A stretch of 64,000 nucleotides of DNA from Saccostrea cucullata (GCF_032062105.1 NW_026927880.1:62001-126000), one strand, 5' to 3'; shown: positions 50,181 to 60,819, counted from the stretch's first letter. A program made the numbers and translations. The notes: generated by a model from the letters alone, not told the origin.

Positions 50181-51493
50181 TTCAACAAAATTTTTCTATC
50201 TTTTCAAAGAATAGCATATTAAGCTTAAGTAGCTATTTCTTACTGACTCTGTAGCTTATCATGCTATTGATTTTTATGTTCCTCATCACAGTTTGTTAAT
50301 TGCTAGATTGATAGATCATTATTTCTATTAAATACCAATTTATATAGGTATATAGTACTGCAGTGTTGCCCCAATATTGCTGCTGCAAAACCTGAAATAA
50401 TTAATACATGTTCTGCAATTTCTTTGCAGCAACATTGCCGCAACACCTTTCTGGCAATATTGCGGCAAATCTAATTTACATACGAAAAACGATATTGCCG
50501 CAATATTGCTGCAATATACTGCCAGAATGTTGCTACAGTATTGCCGCAATACTTTTCTAATTTACATACGAACCAGAAGTCTCTGTGGAGACTGAAGCTC
50601 TACTGGCTTGTACTTCAGGAAAGGAAGAGAAAAGTTGGAAACTGAAACTTTACCACAGCAATAAAAAGAATAATGATCCTTGATTAAGTCTCTTTATGTT
50701 CTTAGTGTAGTCTACTTGCATGCCACATTACTTAAACTGTATTTGGAGTAGAATTTTGAGAGTTTTTAACAGAAATTTCTATTTTTAGTAACAACGGCAA
50801 CACCGTTCATCGAAATCTAAAACCGATACACAGAATTATGTATTTTAGTGTAGTCTACTTGTGTGCCAAGTTATATTGAAATCAGACCAACACTGTAGGA
50901 GGAATAGCATTTTGAAAGAATTTCTCAGAAATTTCTATTTTTAGTAACAACGGCAACACCGTTCATGGAAATCAAAAACTGATACACAGAATTATGTATC
51001 TTAGTGTAGTGTACTTGTGTGCCAAGTTATATTGAAATCAGACCAAAACTGTAGGAGGAATAGCATTTTGAAAGAATTTCACAGAAATTTCTATTTTTAG
51101 TAACAACGGCAACACCGTTCATGGAAATCAAAAACTGATACACAGAATTATGTATCTTAGTGTAGTGTACTTGTGTGCCAAGTTATACTGAAATCAGACC
51201 AAAACTGTAGAAAGAGTAGCATTTTGAAAGAATTTCACAGAAATTTCTATTTTTAGTAACAACAGCAACACCGTTCATGGAAATCAAAAACCGATACACA
51301 GAATTATGTATCTTAGTGTAGTGTACTTGTGTGCCAAGTTATATTGAAATCAGGCGAAAGCTGTAGGAGGAGTAGCATTTTGAAAGAATTTCACAGAAAT
51401 TTCTATTTTTAGTAACAACGGCAACACCGTTCATGGAAATCAAAAACCGATACACAGAATTATGTATCTTAGTGTAGTGTACTTGTGTGCCAA

Positions 51494-52084
51494 TGTAATA
51501 TGTACTGTGGGTTCTCCAGTCATGGAAAAAGAAATATATATAATTTTCCTTACGTTGCCTACGTCAATAATTGATTGGTAAAAATAAACTAAACGAGAAT
51601 TACGTGGAATAAAATTTACTAAATTTGTACAAGCAATGATTCTCTAATGATTCCTCTAATGTTCCTGAGCTATCCTAGTGCTTTAGCTATCCAAGGTCTG
51701 AAATCATTTAATTGAGCTTCCAAAGCTCCCAGACCTTATATCTCAGAGCAGTGTTTCCAAACACCCTCTATAAAACTTATATTATTCCAATAGGTTTGGG
51801 ACCTAATGTACCCCAAATGGTATGTCTGCAGTATATTGAGACCCGCAAATGAGGCACAATAAATTCCTTACCTTTTTAACACGATCCACGCTGATCAGCG
51901 GCCACTGGCAGACTAACTACGAGCATCAGCGCTCGCCAGTATTTATAGTTACCCAAAGACCCTAAGTCATCGTCTTTGTCTTAGTCATTAAAACGTTTAA
52001 TGTTATATAGCTAATACACTAGGAAGCATCTGATTGACAACTAATTTGCATATAATTAATTTGATCAAGGAAATTTCTACTACA
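51494..52084 (-). repeat. 3' LTR
   Basis: Matches 58471-59061; only 2 substitutions seen by eye. Confidence 0.97.
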
Positions 52085-52100
52085 TTACCCACGCCTCCGA
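52085..52100 (-). other. Imperfect polypurine tract
   Basis: - strand GGAGGCGTGGGTAA abuts the 3' LTR and is preceded by the hairpin ATATGCG-GGA-CGCATAT. Confidence 0.55.
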
Positions 52101-52330
52101 AACATATGCGTCCCGCATATCACTTAAATAAAACATTTTTTTTTCTTCTTTTACTTTTCAATACACATACTTCAAATTCCAGTAATTATTTACAATGAGT
52201 TTTAAAGGTAATGCAATATCTCTTGACATTCCCGCAAAAAAAATAATAATCGAATGAGTCCTATCAATAAACATTTTGCTCAATGTACTTGTTACTCGAC
52301 AGAACACAAAGTGTCATAAAACACTATTCT

Positions 52331-53092
52331 TCACTCCAAATAGAAGAATTCCTCTTCTTCGACAGTTTCCACAATGTTCTTTTGGTCATTGGTGTACGTT
52401 GACACCACCTTGTGAACTTTTCTTTTCTTAACGTATCTGTCTTTACAACCACAATTGGTTTGCGTAGCTCTCGTGCATGTACTTGTAGATCCAAATGAAA
52501 ATCTCCCAAGTGGTGTTGGTTTCTCAGGAAGAGAAACAGGGGTCCTTCTCTTGGGTGCAAACACGGGTGCTGGAGCCGTGGCTTTTCGAACTACCCGTCC
52601 TTTTTCTTGAGATTTTACTTTGATATCAACACTTGCTTCTTCATTCATGCTTTTGACATCTTGTGAATCTTGTTTGGTTTCACCATGATCTCCAATACAT
52701 GCATTATTCATTAGCTCACCAGCACCTTTATCACCATCATCATCCTCGCTACTCGAATCACCAGATTGGGAACTGCTCTCGCTGACACTAAGGGTCTCAT
52801 GAATTACATCTCCGGGATCTTGTTCAAGCCATGATTCATCTTCCTCGTCTTTCTTTTCTTCACCAACTTTAACCTTCTCATCTGCTTTTTGCTGATCTTC
52901 CGTTTGTTCGTGGAACTTCCTCTTATGATGAATCAAATAAAGCCTCTTTTTGAAAAGTTTTCCACACATTTTGCAGGGATATCTCCCTCCATTGCAAGCT
53001 AGCAAATGTTCCCTCCAGCGACTACCATCTACTTCGCCATCACACAAGGGACATTTGTTTTCCTTAGCTTTTGTAATTTTCGTATTTGGCAT
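52331..53092 (-). CDS. Gypsy accessory ORF3: 253-aa zinc-finger protein (C2HC-like plus C2H2) with acidic region and basic C-terminus
   Basis: CPLC-x11-H-x3-C followed by YPCKMCGKLFKKRLYLIHHKRKFH. Lies between the integrase stop and the PPT, same sense as pol. Acceptor TTTATTATTTCAG| sits 5 nt before the ATG. Confidence 0.85.
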   Translation of the reverse strand: MPNTKITKAKENKCPLCDGEVDGSRWREHLLACNGGRYPCKMCGKLFKKRLYLIHHKRKFHEQTEDQQKADEKVKVGEEKKDEEDESWLEQDPGDVIHETLSVSESSSQSGDSSSEDDDGDKGAGELMNNACIGDHGETKQDSQDVKSMNEEASVDIKVKSQEKGRVVRKATAPAPVFAPKRRTPVSLPEKPTPLGRFSFGSTSTCTRATQTNCGCKDRYVKKRKVHKVVSTYTNDQKNIVETVEEEEFFYLE

Positions 53093-53186
53093 CTTGGCTG
53101 AAATAATAAAGAAATAAAATAGTTACATCTCTATTCTAAAAACAAAGCAAATGTACTTATCTCTGCTACTTCTTCACTTAATAATT

Positions 53187-56100
53187 CTAAGTTTCATAAT
53201 CATTTAACCATTTGGGTTTTCTACGAATACGTTTATGGTCATTTTCATCAACCAATTCTTCTACAGAATCTACATTAATTGGGCTTTCATAGTCAATTTC
53301 GTCAGACTCGTCTTTATCTATAGATGCTTCGTTGTCAATATCTAAATTTTCAAAGTTTAAAACTTGTTCCTTCTTTTTTCGCATCCTATCACAATGGATG
53401 ATTTGCCTTTCACCCTTTCTACCACATGCAACGGCATAAAGAACATCGGACCATTGCTCAAGAACCTCGAATGGCCCGCGCCAAAATGAGGTAAGCTTGG
53501 GCGAACAACCAATTTTCTTCTGTGGAAAATATACAAACACCTTGTCACCAGGCTTAAATCTTTCCCATGCCATTTTTATGTCATGGTACCTCTTTTGCCG
53601 ATTCATGGCGGTTTCAATATTTTGACGGACAAAACTATGTGCTCTTTCTAGCCTTTCCCGTAGGATCCAAGCCCAGTGGTTTGGACTTTCTTGCTTCAGG
53701 GGTTCTGGCATTTCATAGATTAAGTCCAGAGGTAAAGATGTTTCTCGACCTAACATCAGCATATTAGGTGTTAGTCCTGTAGATTTATGTTCTGCCGATC
53801 TGTAGGCCATCATAACATATGGGATTTGTGCATCCCAATCCCTTTGGTTCTCTTGTACAAACGCACTTAACATTGATGTTAAAGTTCTATTAAATCGCTC
53901 TACCATCCCATCTGACTGGGGATGGTAGGCAGTTGTGCGTGTTTTCTCAATGTGTAGAAGCTTACACACTTCACCAAACAGCTCACTCTCGAACTGTCGC
54001 CCTTGATCGGAATGTATTATTCTGGGTGTTCCAAACCTGGAAATAACCTCTTCTACAATAATTTTTGCGACCGTTTTAGATTCCATATTTGGCATGGGGA
54101 ATGCCTCTGTCCATTTTGTAAAATAGTCAGAGACTACGAGAATATATCTGTTTCCATTCTCGGTAAGAGGCAATTCTCCAAGGATGTCTGTCGCTATCCG
54201 ATCCATTGGCATCCCAGATGGCACTAGCTGCATGGGTGCAACCTTTTTCTTATTCGGGTTTTTGCGCCTTGTACATATATCACATCCAGTGACATACTGC
54301 CTAACATCTTGTTGTAGACCGGGCCAGTAAAATCGTTGCTGTACTCTGGCCAATGTTTTTTCAACCCCGAGATGTCCAGCTGTCTTTTCGTCATGACAAT
54401 GCTTTGAAATATTCCTTCTCTCAAAGAGAGGTATCACCTGTTGCAGTTTGACTTCATCTGTCTCCAACACAGTCCACTGTCTACAAACAATTCCATTTAC
54501 CAATGTTAGTCTGTGCCATTGACTCCAAAGAGATCTGAGGAAATATCCTTTGCATCTAATATCTTCAAAAGCTGGCCTGGTATTTGTTTCAAGCCATGAT
54601 TTCACAAGGCATATGTCTTTGTCTTGATCTTGCATTTCTTGCACAGACATGTTACCCTCCGATGTCTTATCCTCATGTATCGACCGAATTCTTGCTTTAG
54701 GGTGAATAAATTTGCTGGCACACGACTCATTTCCACATTGTTTGCAAGGGATTCTGCTTAGAGCATCTGCATTTCTGTGCAAATTGCCTGCTCTATGTTG
54801 AATCTGTATTTCATAGGTAGATAATGATTCGATCCACCTAGCTATCTGTCCTTCCGCATCTTTCTTATTTAAGAGCCATCTCAAAGAACTGTGGTCGGTG
54901 CGTACCACAAAAGGTTTACCATACAAATAGTGTCTAAAATGTTTAACAAAGTTAACAATCGAAAGTAGCTCCTTTCGTGTAACACAATATTTGCGTTCAG
55001 CTTTGGTTAGACAGCGACTTGCATAATAGATTACTTTCTCATCCCCATCCTTTACTTGAGACAAAACAGCACCAATTGCTGTGTCACTAGCGTCGGTGTC
55101 CAGGATGAAAGGTTTTGAAAAGTCTGGGTGCGCAAGCACAGGGGCTTTCACTAACTTATTTCGTAAAATGTCGAATGACTCTTGACACTCTTCCGACCAA
55201 ATGTACTTTTTACTCTGCTGGGTCAATGCATGAAGTGGTTTGACTAAAGCAGCGAAGTTGGGTACAAACTTTCTATAGTAGCTACAGAAACCCAAAAAGG
55301 ATCGCAGCTCCGTGATATTTTGTGGTTGAGGCCAATTTCGGATAGCGTCCGTTTTCTTTGGGTCTGTCGAAATTCCCTGTTCTGAAACCACATGCCCCAA
55401 ATAGTCAACACTGTTAGCAAACAGTGTACATTTCTTTGCTTTTAGCTTTAACCCTGCTGCTGCCAATTTATCAAACACTTTGGAACATGCCTTCAAAGGA
55501 TTTGGCGTAGACAATGATGTCATCGAGGTAAATGAGGCAAATGTCCCATTGTAGACCTGCTAAGACAGTCTCCATCAACCTCTCGAAGGTAGCCGGGGCA
55601 TTACATAGCCCGAATGGCATTACATTGAAATGATACAAGCCATTTCGAGTGACAAATGCCGTCTTGGCTTTATCTTTTGCGTCCATCTCTATTTGCCAGT
55701 ATCCTGAATGGAGATCGAGTGTCGAGAACCATTTGCATCCCGCTAGCTGATCTAGTGTTTCGTCTATGCGGGGTATAGGATAGGCGTCTTTCTCTGTAAT
55801 GGCATTGAGGCGCCTATAATCAATGCAAAACCTCGTAGATCCGTCTTTCTTCTTTACTAGGACAACTCGTGAAGCCCAAGGGCTCTTAGACGGTTCAATA
55901 ACTTTATTTTCTAACATTTCTTGGACATGTTTATCCACCTCTGCATTCATGTGTTCTGGGAGCCTTCTAGGAACTTCTTTGATGGGCTTATGACTTCCTG
56001 TATCAATGCTGTGTTTAGTCATAGCAGTTCGTCCCACATCTTTATCGGATTTGGTAAAGATGTGTGCGTATTTACACAAAAGCTGTTTCACCATCTTTGC

Positions 56101-58215
56101 TTGCCTTTTACTGTGATTTGCTATTGTTTTCTTAAACAATGATGTCATGTGTTCAGGCAAAGTCTCACTGGATTCTGTTTCATTTAATCCACCCTCAAGT
56201 ATCTCCTCTACTGGTGCCAGTTGGACAACTGCCAGTTGTCCAACTGCAGTGCCAACATGTATTGTGATATTTCTTTCAGTTGGGTTAAGCAAACGTATTG
56301 GAACACATTTATTTCCTTTCACTAAGGTCCTTCCTACCAAACCTCTATCAGAATTTAAATATGAGCAGGAGGGTTCTACAACACCAAATTCTGAACCAAA
56401 TTCTTGGTTTTCTGGAACAATGACCTTCCCAGTGGTGACTATTTCACTCTTTGAAGGAAGTGACAACGTTTCTGATGTAACGATTCTGAAACAACCTATT
56501 GTACCTTCAAATTTCAAACAATGAGTTTCATCTCCCAGAATAAGTGTCTTATCGTATAGATTGATTACACCTTTGTTATTCTGCAAACAGTCAAGACCCA
56601 AAATCGCATCTACATTAATGTCTGCAATTAAAGATGTTTTGTATATGATTTTCTTCCGAAATTTGAACTTAATAAGTGTCTTCCCCAAAATACTCAAAGG
56701 AGTACCTGTAGCTGACAAGATATTTAAGTCCGTTTCAGCCAACTCTATCTTCTTATCACGGTTTATGACTTCAAATACCTTTTGTGATAGAAGAGTTACT
56801 GTTGCTCCTGTATCTACTAATGTTGTAATCGGAACATTATTAGCAGTCCCCAAGACGTACATGCCTGGTTCGTTAACTTTTCTCTGTACTCCAATACTAC
56901 CTTTCTTGATTGGTCTACTGTTTTCTGAAGCTAATTGTTTTGCGGTGCCTTCTTTAGAAAAACCTTTTTTCTTTAGTCCTCCAGGTGGTCCAGAACCAAA
57001 CTCTTCGAAATTATCTTTCCTTTTCTCTGTATTCTGCAGCCTACAGTTTCTCTTGAAGTGCCCAGGTTTTCCACAATTAAAGCACTTTTTAGTAGTTGTA
57101 TCACTTGCTTTCTTATTGAAATTCCGTGAGGAATACGAAGGAAATTCCTTGTTTGGGAACTTTTGCTGCCCATGCTTTATTTTGTTAACAGCTTTTTGAA
57201 GACTCAGGAGCATATCTTTCATAGATTTCATCACTTCTTCCAGAGTATCCGACTTGGTTTTAACTGGTGGTTTTTCACTGCCTATCTCTCGAGCAAAATC
57301 ATCACTATGCTTTTTGCGCTCTGCACCTATGAAAGCATCTAGTTCCACCGCGTGCCTTATAGCATCGTTCAGACTTCCTGGTCTTGATTGTTTTATTCTA
57401 AGACGCATGTCAAAGCTTGTTAGAGCATCTATGAAATACTCTTTGGCTAGTGTTTCACACAAGTCCCCTGAGGCCGTCGGATATGCAAGACGTGTTAGGC
57501 GTCTGATGTCTTGTCCAAACTGGGGTATAGTTTCTGTTGCTTTTTGACGCCTCTCTTTTAGTTGGGCTCTGTAGAGTTCCGTTTGATTGACAGGAGAAAA
57601 ACGCTCCTCCAGAGATTTTGACAATTCTTGGAAGTTCATTTGTAACCTATCTGGAAGGTTTCCAAGCACACCTTGGGCTTGTCCGCGTAGGGATACTGCC
57701 AAATACATTCCCTTCTCTTCCTCTGACCACTTGTTTAATGATGCACAAGCATTAAAATGGGACCTGTAGTCTAACCATGACGTTGTTCCGTCATATGTAG
57801 CAGGTTTTAAGCTGCTTAGTTTATTAGCCCTGTATCCTGGCCCTTCTTCAAAACCATGCCTCTGAAATCGTCCATCCTGGCTTCTCCGCAATGTAATGTT
57901 ACCTGCCTCCCTGAATGGTGTTTCAAGATATATGCCAGAATTCCGTGAACTATCGTCTTTTCTTTCATTTGAGGCAGAAGCGGATCTGAAAGCATTTTCT
58001 GTACCAACATTAAACTTTACTTTGGGTTTGGCACCTCCATAATCTTCTTCATGTTTTGATTCCTTTTGTCCCGAAGCACCAATTCCAGAATCTCTAACAG
58101 TTATTGGAGTAGATATCTTTTGATGTTCCTTTTGTTGAAGTAAAATACTTTCATTAGAAAGCGCCTTTACTTGCTCTTCCAAATAGCTTATCTCTTTATC
58201 TAGCGTATCTTCCAT
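53187..58215 (-). pseudogene. gag-pol polyprotein with a frameshift in RT near 55480
   Basis: Gag KPATYDG..W, knuckle CFNCGKPGHFKRNC, protease LVDTGA, RT YLDD, RNase H DTDAS, integrase H-H-C-C / D,D(35)E (ATD, HSDQG, VERFN) and GPF. The frame changes about 11 codons after YLDD. Confidence 0.93.
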
Positions 58216-58447
58216 GACTTTGACCTAAACGTTTTCTACCTTAAGACTTTAAAACACGTTTGAAACTTACAGTTTTAAACTTAATGCTATCTCTTACTAT
58301 TAAACACAAATGAATAAAAAAAAAATGGGATATGTACTTCAAATGGTTTGTCTGCAGCAATTTGAGACCCGCATATGAAGTACACTCCCGTCCTTAAAAG
58401 TTAAGCTCAAAATAACAACAAAAATTTGCTTCTCTTTTGTTTAGATC

Positions 58448-58465
58448 ATCCCACCGCTGCCACCA
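58448..58465 (-). other. Primer binding site complementary to the tRNA-Leu 3' end
   Basis: - strand TGGTGGCAGCGGTGGGAT, 5 nt inside the 5' LTR boundary; complementary to the ...ATCCCACCGCTGCCA-CCA end of metazoan tRNA-Leu(AAG/TAG). Confidence 0.85.
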
Positions 58466-58470
58466 AATTT

Positions 58471-59061
58471 TGTAATATGTACTGTGGGTTCTCCAGTCAT
58501 GGAAAAAGAAATATATATAATTTTCCTTACGTTGCCTACGTCAATAATTGATTGGTAAAAATAAACTAAACGAGAATTACGTGGAATAAAATTTACTAAA
58601 TTTGTACAAGCAATGATTCTCTAATGATTCCTCTAATGTTCCTGAGCTATCCTAGTGCTTTAGCTATCCAAGGTCTGAAATCATTTAATTGAGCTTCCAA
58701 AGCTCCCAGACCTTATATCTCAGAGCAGTGTTTCCAAACACCCTCTATAAAACTTATATTATTCCAATAGGTTTGGAACCTAATGTACCCCAAATGGTAT
58801 GTCTGCAGTATATTGAGACCCGCAAATGAGGCACAATAAATTCCTTACCTTTTTAACACGATCCACGCTGATCAGCGGCCACTGGCAGACTAACTACGAG
58901 CATCAGCGCTCGCCATTATTTATAGTTACCCAAAGACCCTAAGTCATCGTCTTTGTCTTAGTCATTAAAACGTTTAATGTTATATAGCTAATACACTAGG
59001 AAGCATCTGATTGACAACTAATTTGCATATAATTAATTTGATCAAGGAAATTTCTACTACA
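58471..59061 (-). repeat. 5' LTR with candidate TATA (58923-58917), initiator TTAGT (~58891) and splice donor (58849/58848)
   Basis: - strand CTATAAATA, then TTAGTC about 30 nt downstream, then AAAG|GTAAGG. Confidence 0.9.
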
Positions 59062-60819
59062 CCAAGTTATATTGAAATCAGACCATAACTGTAGGAGGAG
59101 TAGCATTTTGAAAGAATTTCACAGAAATTTCTATTTTTAGTAACAACGGCAACACCGTTAATGGAAATCAAAAACCGATAAACAGAATTATGTATCTTAG
59201 TGTAGTCTACTTGTGTGCCAAGTTATATTGAAATCAGACCAAAACTGTAGGAGGAGTAGCATTTTGAAAAATTGTTTACAGACAGACAGACAGACGGACA
59301 GACAGACAGACAGACGGACGGACGACGGACGCATTACTATCGCATAAGCTCTTCTGGTCTCTGACCAGTAGAGCTAAAAACGATATTACCGCAATATTGC
59401 TGCAATGTATTGCCAGAATGTTGCTGCAATATTGCGGCAATAATGCCAGAAGATGTTGCCAGAAGGTGAGTATTTTGGTAAGGGTTTTCGATACTTTTCA
59501 CTCTGGCATATGTGATGAAAAAATTAACATAAATTGAAATTTTTCATATTCTAGCTATTTTTAATCATTTTATTCCAACACGAAAAAAGTTCATAGTTTT
59601 TTACTCACTGTCTGACTGCAGTACCGGTATTACTCCTGAGCATTTAAAGTAAGTTAGAATTTCTTTCAAAGAATCGTACCTATTGTATGCATTCCTTTAT
59701 TGAATAATTTTTTTAGATTTAATATTTATTTATGAAAACATTCAAAAACAATAAAATAAATGAGAATAACGTACAGCTGGCATTAGAGTTCAAATGTCCA
59801 TTCAAACAAAATCAGGAGCATGCAGAGCTAACACGGACCTCCAAAACATCAGAGGTTGGATCGGGTGACAATACAACAAAACCTTCTGAAAACTGAAACA
59901 TTTCATCATATTTATTTTATGCACAATCCATGTCCAACAGTGTTTTTTTTTTCGGGAAATTCTAAAATTATAGAACCTTGCTCAATTTAAAATTTAAAAT
60001 GCATCCCAAATCCAAAACTGTGAAGTCAATCCACTGTCCTGTGGGTGAAACAGAACGCATATATTACACGACGATCAGAAAAAAGCCTCAGTACATTAAT
60101 TACCAAAAGTAGTTTTTGCAACTTTAGAGGGTTTATTATATAAATACTGCATGTAGTTACACTCAACTATATGCAATATTTATTATATTATACTGAATGT
60201 TTTATACAAATACAAATAATAGTGAACCGTGCGCATAAATTCTGCGCAGTCGCTATTTCTTGGAATATCACCCGTCGTCAAGCAATGTTGACTGTTGCTA
60301 CGCTGGAGGGCGTGGCTTCATTATTCACCGGGTAAAAGTGTTTTTTAACAAATGTTTCTCGACCAATCAGATTCAACTAATTTACATGAAAGTACAATAC
60401 ATGTATTTTAAATTATTGTATGAAGTCAGACTTAACATATATACTAATTTTATATTCCTTGCAAATAAATACAAAAAAGACAATTTTCTTCAAAATACGA
60501 GTAAAAATGTACATGTTTAAAGATTTATACTTAACTAATATTAACATGAATCAGTTTTTCAGCAATATAACTGAAACAATAGGGAAATCAAAGGATATTT
60601 AAGAAAAAATTACTTTAAGGATCAACAAATTTAATTATAATCGGTTTAGAAAGGTCGTATATATATGTGCTTTCAAATACATTTCTTTGGATCTAAATAT
60701 TCATGCTGAAAGCAAATGCAAGACAAATGTTCTTTTGCATTTAGAAAAAAATGTTGCAATTGCTAAAAGTTTATTTTCTTGAATAAAGGAAAGATGACAT
60801 CCGTGTAATACATTGTAAA

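Follow-up and report, generated by a model that had tools for sequence, protein, structure and literature searches.

Oyster Gypsy retrotransposons carry a selected third gene that encodes two zinc fingers behind an N-terminus likened to the histone H3 tail

Errantiviruses make their envelope protein from a spliced subgenomic RNA, and in other systems elements encode activators of their own copies: VANC of plant Mutator elements and Tas of foamy viruses act in trans and in a family-specific manner. These activators are likened to ORF3, the oyster gene considered here, by role, and for ORF3 that role is proposed; to our knowledge neither of them carries an H3 mimic. In errantiviruses and env-carrying Ty3-gypsy elements a third gene lies between pol and the 3' LTR (PMC13524379). 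ORF3 occupies the same place, but it has no signal-like or membrane stretch, bears zinc fingers and an NLS-like motif instead, and its spliced RNA is a prediction. The metazoan Gypsy element Cer1 of C. elegans encodes a nuclear accessory protein, CERV, through a spliced RNA, and ORF3 is predicted to be alike; CERV exports genome RNA (PMC10309623), whereas ORF3 has C2H2 and CCHC fingers, an H3-like tail, and an LC8 motif. Conserved accessory ORFs other than env, sORF1 and sORF2, occur in the Drosophila MDG1 group and lie downstream of pol in some moth elements; the product of sORF2 is a membrane protein, small in size and of the FAST-fusogen type (PMC11952523), whereas ORF3 lacks a membrane segment.

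Outside transposons, SNAG factors such as SNAIL place an H3-mimicking N-terminal tail, often beginning with Pro1, on C2H2 fingers, and SNAG binding to LSD1 relies on R2 (PMC13316430). ORF3 is not a SNAG protein, because R2 matters in SNAIL and is matched by ORF3 in 0 of 25 clusters; it keeps T3, K4, T6, and K9, which brings it closer to H3, its fingers adjoin the tail, and it is encoded by a transposon. LC8 (dynein light chain) clients have a TQT anchor, to which the ORF3 pattern x-D-x-G-T-Q-T-[ED] is close, the reported optimal motif being VSRGTQTE; many TQT peptides are reported to fail to bind (PMC6607443), and for ORF3 binding is a prediction.

The literature consulted, which covered few subscription papers, describes neither ORF3 nor any H3 mimic encoded by a retrotransposon. 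The main text of PMC13524379 does not contain the words "zinc", "third ORF", or "ORF3", and the accessible text of PMC13228809 and of surveys of molluscs and annelids (PMC6238403, PMC10294476, PMC8220671) mentions neither a zinc-finger third ORF in molluscs nor a retrotransposon H3 mimic. PMC6238403, which treats mollusc Gypsy clades (Mag C-clade, MolGy), has neither "ORF" nor "zinc" in its accessible text; supplements to it and to PMC13524379 may list these families. The gene is apparently undescribed so far.

The window is a stretch of 64,000 nucleotides from Saccostrea cucullata, and it contains a complete Gypsy element on the minus strand with LTRs, primer-binding site (PBS), polypurine tract (PPT), and a 4-bp target duplication. 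In window coordinates the parts of the element are:

59062-59065 and 51490-51493: target duplication TTGG, 4 bp, flanking the element
58471..59061, minus strand: 5' LTR, 591 bp, TG...CA ends, 2 mismatches against the 3' LTR
51494..52084, minus strand: 3' LTR, 591 bp, TG...CA ends, 2 mismatches against the 5' LTR
58448..58465, minus strand: PBS, presumably tRNA-Leu-like; similar sites in most families
55471..58215, minus strand: gag, protease, and first part of RT (Retrotrans_gag, zf-CCHC, aspartyl protease, RVT_1), stopping at a frameshift lesion near 55480
53187..55559, minus strand: remaining RT, RNase H, and integrase (RT_RNaseH, Integrase_H2C2, rve, Integrase_p58_C)
53187-53189, minus strand: integrase stop TAG
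52085..52098, minus strand: PPT

The TG...CA LTRs, PBS, PPT, and target duplication, together with the domain order gag, then protease-RT-RNase H-integrase, are those of Ty3/Gypsy elements (Metaviridae). Sister copies have a single gag-pol frame of 1640-1760 aa without the RT frameshift, so the frameshift near 55480 is a lesion of the window copy. The host element is a young, structurally ordinary Gypsy and not of the env-carrying type. It sits in an array of 156-bp tandem repeats ending in a short microsatellite (50578-51501 and 59062-59385), which we take to be a Helentron-type non-autonomous element. Elsewhere in the genome, whole elements stand head-to-tail in tandem and share an LTR (L049), and integrase matches are equally spaced on the contigs G000 C6271, C9170, C18637, and C9972.

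A sequence-only reading of the window had placed a 253-codon zinc-finger ORF between the integrase stop and the PPT, inside the LTRs. That ORF holds up at 53092-52331; of the bounds then given, 52331..53120, the first is the end of ORF3, but the second takes in the splice acceptor tract, the ATG being at 53092. Each protein feature attributed to it (a C2HC-like finger, a C2H2 finger, an acidic/Ser tract with WLEQDPG, and basic motifs) is present:

52331..53092, minus strand: ORF3 accessory gene, 253 aa, starting 94 nt past the integrase stop and lying before the 3' LTR
53063..53089, minus strand: H3-like tail PNTKITKAK, with T3, K4, T6, and K9 in register with H3 ARTKQTARK
52994..53053, minus strand: finger 1, CCHC type, residues 14-33; C14, C17, H29, and C33 invariant in 34/34 aligned sequences; pLDDT about 77-82
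52910..52975, minus strand: finger 2, classical C2H2, residues 40-61; Pfam zf-C2H2 at E up to 0.1 in 29/34 members; pLDDT 89-91
52811..52831, minus strand: acidic W-x-x-x-D-P-G motif (WLEQDPG here); W88, D92, and P93 at least 90% conserved
52544..52588, minus strand: RKxTxP...KRR motif; full pattern in 16/25 clusters; R169, K170, T172, and P174 at least 90% conserved
52454..52474, minus strand: TQT motif, predicted LC8 site, backed by a complex model
52340..52432, minus strand: C-terminal beta-hairpin, AlphaFold strands 221-235 and 238-251, pLDDT about 73-81

Beyond the four ligands of finger 1, the positions invariant in all 34 aligned ORF3s are M1, K5, T7, C40, and H56. The AlphaFold model (mean pLDDT 62, pTM 0.26) has two fingers, a long disordered middle, and the C-terminal hairpin. 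Three short motifs are kept within the disorder: W-x-x-x-D-P-G, which we infer to resemble an activation domain; RKxTxP with basic residues, presumably a bipartite NLS-like pattern; and TQT.

The earlier view that ORF3 is not an envelope protein stands. Its hydropathy over 19 residues peaks at only 0.12, so it has no membrane segment or signal-like stretch, and the signal peptide and membrane anchor of an envelope third ORF are both lacking; domain searches of the window and of ORF3 members returned no envelope-family match, and zinc-finger families dominate the matches to ORF3. Foldseek with the ORF3 model gave no match at E 0.001 or better and returned generic finger pairs only; finger 1 as a UBZ is rejected, its TAX1BP1 matches reaching E 0.13 only. 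A PDB sequence search gave nothing but C2H2 proteins among the 60 matches listed, and a protein atlas search gave clusters that are unnamed or C2H2, of low recognition value.

A search of the genome with ORF3 scored 150 of 233 candidates and gave at least 93 matches. Among 60 stretches picked through ORF3, 52 have integrase directly upstream, as expected if relatives keep ORF3 between integrase and the 3' LTR; the rest, from the same genome, are deletion derivatives (six of the form gag-protease-ORF3, one LTR-ORF3) or a fragment (one). An intact ORF3 with its own start is found in 48 of the 60, leaving out the deletion form L039. With the window copy, the 49 intact ORF3s fall into 17 families at 70%, a minimum for the genome; identity of ORF3 between families is 20-58% (median 27%). 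Within families dN/dS is 0.05-0.59 (median 0.30) and below 1 in 32/32 pairs, each against the family's first member, by NG86 without transition correction, so that the ratio is somewhat too low, and with pairs that share members. For ten chosen pairs of near families, synonymous difference is 0.72-0.96 per site, near or at saturation, and non-synonymous difference 0.27-0.51. Selection is thus purifying, in line with the functional gene first proposed. That proposal had also stressed that ORF3 is intact beside a frameshifted pol; both are seen, but their pairing carries no weight: the copy is so young that, judged by its LTR divergence, ORF3 should have collected no more than about 1.3 substitutions.

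Across 21 families, distances measured on ORF3 correlate with those measured on integrase (rho 0.25; 3/2000 permutations), and the nearest family by ORF3 is also the nearest by integrase in 14/21. ORF3 as a module swapped between families is not favoured on these figures, although the correlation is weak at depth. The closest named protein, 94% identical, is from Saccostrea cucullata; in word-based searches and cluster look-ups, where most matches are unnamed, all relatives with a name belong to Saccostrea, Ostrea, or Magallana/Crassostrea. In a full profile search long poly-finger proteins swamp the 150 listed of 59,917 matches, and remote relatives may be hidden there. ORF3 is a real, selected third gene common to many oyster Gypsy families.

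Several ORF3 relatives from Ostrea and Saccostrea (P0112, P0118, P0224, P0286-P0289, P0295) bear the RefSeq name "RE1-silencing transcription factor-like", and one from Crassostrea angulata is "HIVEP3-like". These are likely transposon genes filed as host factors.

Many copies of the element do without ORF3. From the best 150 integrase matches, 60 stretches were drawn after removing places already picked through ORF3, which raises the ORF3-less share; 19 have ORF3 (plus copies) and 41 lack it (minus copies). Absence from sister elements had been held to count against an accessory gene, and it is partly real, but the loss looks like repeated, recent deletion. In the integrase tree 15 of 20 sampled families hold plus and minus copies, three hold plus only, and two minus only. 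This is a count of shallow clades: the tree is a quick search with 56/107 inner branches open, used only for shallow, well-supported families, and nine stretches fall outside the labelled rows, L048 among them as outgroup. From integrase end to PPT the distance is 63-255 nt in 32/41 minus copies versus 835-1063 nt in the 11 plus copies with both found; of the other minus copies, five have a PPT with an unclear integrase end and four have no PPT match. Breakpoints are family-specific and common to several copies (L108/L131/L142, L119/L146, L112/L117/L122), and some minus copies retain a decayed end of ORF3. The breakpoints have no GT-AG ends and show 0-7 nt of microhomology, many alignments being rough where the minus copy is decayed; an origin of the minus form by splicing-out of ORF3 or through fixed flanking repeats is rejected, since breakpoints differ by family and lack GT-AG ends. 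An open gag-pol frame of at least 1639 aa is kept by 11/41 minus copies, and in 17 of the 18 compared the LTR is full-length and matches that of a plus copy at 83-97% identity.

Read most simply, this history has ORF3 gained once long ago, passed down vertically, and lost repeatedly in recent times. There is good support for ORF3 being dispensable in cis, because near-identical sister copies without it look like repeated recent deletions, and dispensability in cis fits a trans-acting factor better than a part that every copy needs. Families that hold both forms suggest that ORF3 is a shared good acting in trans and subject to repeated loss, with minus copies that would depend on the ORF3 of a helper copy.

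Other rearranged forms occur in the same genome. Two minus-only integrase families, nested among ORF3-bearing ones, comprise eight copies (L120, L121, L126, L127, L129, L138, L149, L165) and two copies (L160, L161), and three of these copies have long open gag-pol frames. In L038, L040, and L041 (G000 C22982, C16368, C6938) the unit is bounded by LTRs and protease is joined to ORF3, with RT, RNase H, and integrase gone; L039, L055, and L088 are similar. The first three have one common junction and LTR pairs 94-98% alike, so the deleted form itself has spread; acceptor, H3-like tail, and finger 1 are all missing from it. L048 (6966-8939) is a small unit that runs from a partial LTR through the PBS region to an intact ORF3 followed by a 3' LTR, all of gag-pol missing, and could be an ORF3-only helper.

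The opening residues of ORF3 are conserved in register with those of histone H3, matching T3, K4, T6, and K9 but never R2. Positions were counted after the Met against this genome's H3 in 79 proteins forming 25 clusters at 60%, database starts being taken as the first Met 9-20 residues ahead of finger 1: T3 is matched in 23/25 clusters, K4 and T6 in 25/25 each, K9 in 20/25 (absent from five), R8 in 11/25, and A1 in 8/25, whereas R2 (K in 12, N in 10), Q5, and A7 are matched in 0/25; position 8 of the window copy is A. The N-termini share on average 4.48/9 residues with H3 1-9, versus 0.57 for 5,316 other 9-mers of the same proteins, and at least five identities occur in 14/25 N-termini and in none of those 9-mers. 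The best-scoring H3 window begins at residue 1. T3, K4, and T6 together occur in 0 of 133 unrelated long zinc-finger proteins, and the gag starts of the same elements score 0-2 against H3. In-register scores over 21 families are 4.67 for H3, 1.29 for H1, 0.81 for H2B, and 0.05 for H2A. All synonymous codons are in use at T3, K4, and T6, so the constraint acts on protein, and a splice enhancer or start context is excluded as its cause.

The pattern extends to further sequences. In a held-out set, 10/10 intact ORF3s located through integrase have T3, K4, and T6, and of 21 more new proteins 17 of the 19 scorable ones keep the tail pattern. K-x-T stands four residues past the Met in 87/89 proteins, with varying distance to finger 1; the distance from K to the finger is 9-11 in 80/89 and so is nearly fixed also. 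Residue 1 is P, A, V, S, or T in 24/25 clusters (P 11, A 8, V 3), and these residues favour Met removal. Composition alone would yield the four fixed matches with a probability of about 4e-5, a figure uncorrected for the choice of H3 after the motif was seen and drawn from clusters that share descent. Once register is ignored, a generic K/T/P-rich arm comes close, an H1-tail window scoring 3.9 against 4.67 for H3, and R2 is important for many H3 readers. By sequence, ORF3 would belong with H3-tail mimics, having H3 residues in register from the N-terminus that are kept by selection.

The TQT motif is found in 23/25 clusters against 2.8 expected and is flanked by disorder (pLDDT <50 on both sides). 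Around it D stands at -4 in 13/23 sites, T at -1 in 16/23, and E/D at +2 in 17/23; the window copy's site is without D at -4. In a complex model, two chains of LC8 from this genome and two of ORF3 200-253 score 0.69 versus 0.34 for the best of three controls, on a scale calibrated on microbes whose mark is reached by 51/78 solved complexes and 2/108 mismatched pairs. Runs of this model share at least 80% of contacts, partner pLDDT is at least 49, and the interface comprises residues 203-217. The motif is predicted to be an LC8 binding site; the model may have passed because it resembles LC8-TQT complexes already solved.

The reading preferred here, with a probability of about 0.5, is that ORF3 is a nuclear factor whose fingers would sit on its own family's DNA and whose H3-like tail would engage the H3K4/K9 machinery, keeping the element transcribed, probably in trans. 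ORF3 as a plain LTR-binding transcription factor, with a basic H1-like arm that aids DNA grip and an incidental match to H3, is an unlikely but serious alternative. It draws on finger 2 (K/R at -1 in 11/11 and at +6 in 10/11 pattern-matched families, 10 further families being unmatched), on T-P-R/K-K in many families, on one atlas cluster, 12% of whose members carry a GAGA domain (no more than a lead), and on the H1-tail score and missing R2 described above. A DNA-gripping arm, however, need not keep a fixed four-residue distance from the Met, nor hold two threonines through all synonymous codons, and no LTR target motif was found: across families the LTRs share no common word beyond the LTR end and a CCAAT-like word.

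Expression of ORF3 as a nuclear factor would depend on the following signals of the element:

58918..58924, minus strand: TATA box TATAAAT, with an Inr-like TTAGTC at 58893-58888; start site predicted
58843..58851, minus strand: splice donor AAG/GTAAGG in the predicted R region, the exon ending at base 58849, about 45 nt past the predicted start
53098..53119, minus strand: pyrimidine tract and splice acceptor, ending at 53098, 5 nt upstream of the ORF3 ATG

TATA, Inr, and AAAG/GTAAGG donor in the 5' LTR, and a strong acceptor 5 nt ahead of the ATG, had all been read from the window and are confirmed. The acceptor is the sole YAG in 52000-58500 with at least 15 pyrimidines in the preceding 20 nt. 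An acceptor YAG stands 0-16 nt ahead of the ORF3 ATG in 17/17 families, with no ATG in between, and in 15/17 families fewer than 8% of upstream YAG sites in the same stretch match its score. TATA followed 60-110 nt later by a donor is found in 13/15 families with whole LTRs versus 0.33 expected from shuffles, an expectation that is flattering in that the donor pattern was defined after inspecting these LTRs; the predicted leader is free of ATG in 11/13 families. A second donor-like site, AAC/GTAAGG, lies at 58531, close to the LTR end.

The proposal that ORF3 is made from a spliced subgenomic RNA gains from this conservation across families, but the junction 58849-53097 is unseen: no joining read or contig occurs over 52090-59075 in 4/4 runs (of 24 listed), at very low depth. 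The raw-read runs X17 and X18 hold 28 and 16 element reads of about 12 million. Reads over ORF3 are mainly of one mate direction in X17 (sense if the library is of the usual stranded kind) and mixed in X18, and the enrichment over ORF3 in X17 is explained by oligo-dT 3' bias. In run X1, whose status as RNA is a guess, one contig exits the LTR at 58848, exactly the donor. Another X1 observation is a contig that omits 54243-56966 and 57515-57706, with ends that are not splice-like, and represents another internally deleted form.

The donor GT is kept in 19/19 alignable ORF3-bearing and 8/9 alignable ORF3-less copies (six minus and five plus were unalignable), and decay of the donor upon ORF3 loss is rejected by this direct alignment. 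In foamy viruses a donor in R protects against early polyadenylation, and a donor kept without ORF3 may likewise have a second role.

Strong splice signals in R and ahead of ORF3 pose exactly the problem that a protein like Rev or CERV would solve, and ORF3, made from spliced RNA and returned to the nucleus, might let unspliced genome RNA escape splicing or exit. CERV of Cer1 is the precedent, its mRNA being spliced and the protein needed for genome RNA export (PMC10309623). Most ORF3 deletions take the acceptor too, and copies so altered would have no more need of the protein. A 65-nt segment right after the donor in the LTR (58783-58847) recurs at 58332-58396 (78% identity), in the 5' UTR beyond the PBS, and is a possible RNA- or protein-binding element; it is, however, not shared across families. 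An export role also leaves the H3 register unexplained and sits poorly with a finger 2 that appears DNA-binding, and it is quite improbable.

The near silence of the element in the runs examined would suit a self-limiting, Snail-like repressor or an integration-targeting adaptor, from whose restraint deleted copies escape and under which restrained lineages last longer. The design of SNAG with C2H2 fingers is repressive (PMC13316430), and ORF3-less copies are numerous and often intact. Against this, SNAG's R2 is missing, a trans-acting repressor would restrain deleted copies as well, and the acidic tryptophan motif is probably more activator-like, all of which makes such a brake very doubtful. 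ORF3 as a useless passenger, a captured host exon or chance frame, could draw on its frequent loss (41/60 stretches) and on the host-like RefSeq name of several relatives, but it is largely refuted by purifying selection in 32/32 pairs, by the N-terminal and other short motifs kept at 20-30% overall identity, by the conserved splice layout, by co-divergence with integrase, and by the Gypsy context of all copies examined in context, one fragment excepted, and can practically be set aside.

For the preferred reading, a chromatin-engaging nuclear factor, the steps would run as follows. Transcription would start in the LTR, and splicing from the R donor to the acceptor behind integrase, through an ATG-free leader, would bring ribosomes to ORF3's own start. 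Met removal would leave a free H3-like N-terminus. The NLS-like motif would import the protein, LC8 would pair two chains at TQT to give four fingers, and each chain's two zinc fingers would dock it on its own family's DNA. The tail could then recruit or decoy H3K4/K9 readers or enzymes, and the element would stay transcribed. Being diffusible, ORF3 would also let deleted copies with a compatible LTR spread on a helper's supply, mostly as short-lived branches. The effect might also run the other way, as the best-known H3-mimic zinc-finger proteins (SNAG) are repressors. The conserved nuclear accessory factor of the sequence-only reading accordingly survives as a selected, non-envelope gene of many families with fingers, an NLS-like motif, and no recent host capture, but its function is only predicted. 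That reading had not noticed the H3-like N-terminus, the LC8 motif, or the coexistence of plus and minus copies.

A fuller version, held more tentatively, is that an animal retrotransposon encodes an H3-tail mimic with fingers, dimerised by LC8, that would defeat chromatin silencing of the LTR in trans, a shared good deleted repeatedly in almost all families while mainly ORF3-bearing lineages persist. Among animal Gypsy elements, the additional genes known so far encode envelopes, fusogens, or, in one case, a factor for RNA export; a nuclear factor that joins zinc fingers to an H3-like tail, if true, would be a new kind of accessory gene. Oyster annotations that list ORF3 proteins as host genes inflate counts of host transcription factors. 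ORF3 would be a candidate for a gene by which an animal transposon counters chromatin silencing, and the mixture of plus and minus copies in 15/20 families offers a natural, replicated system for helper-and-cheater dynamics among transposons.
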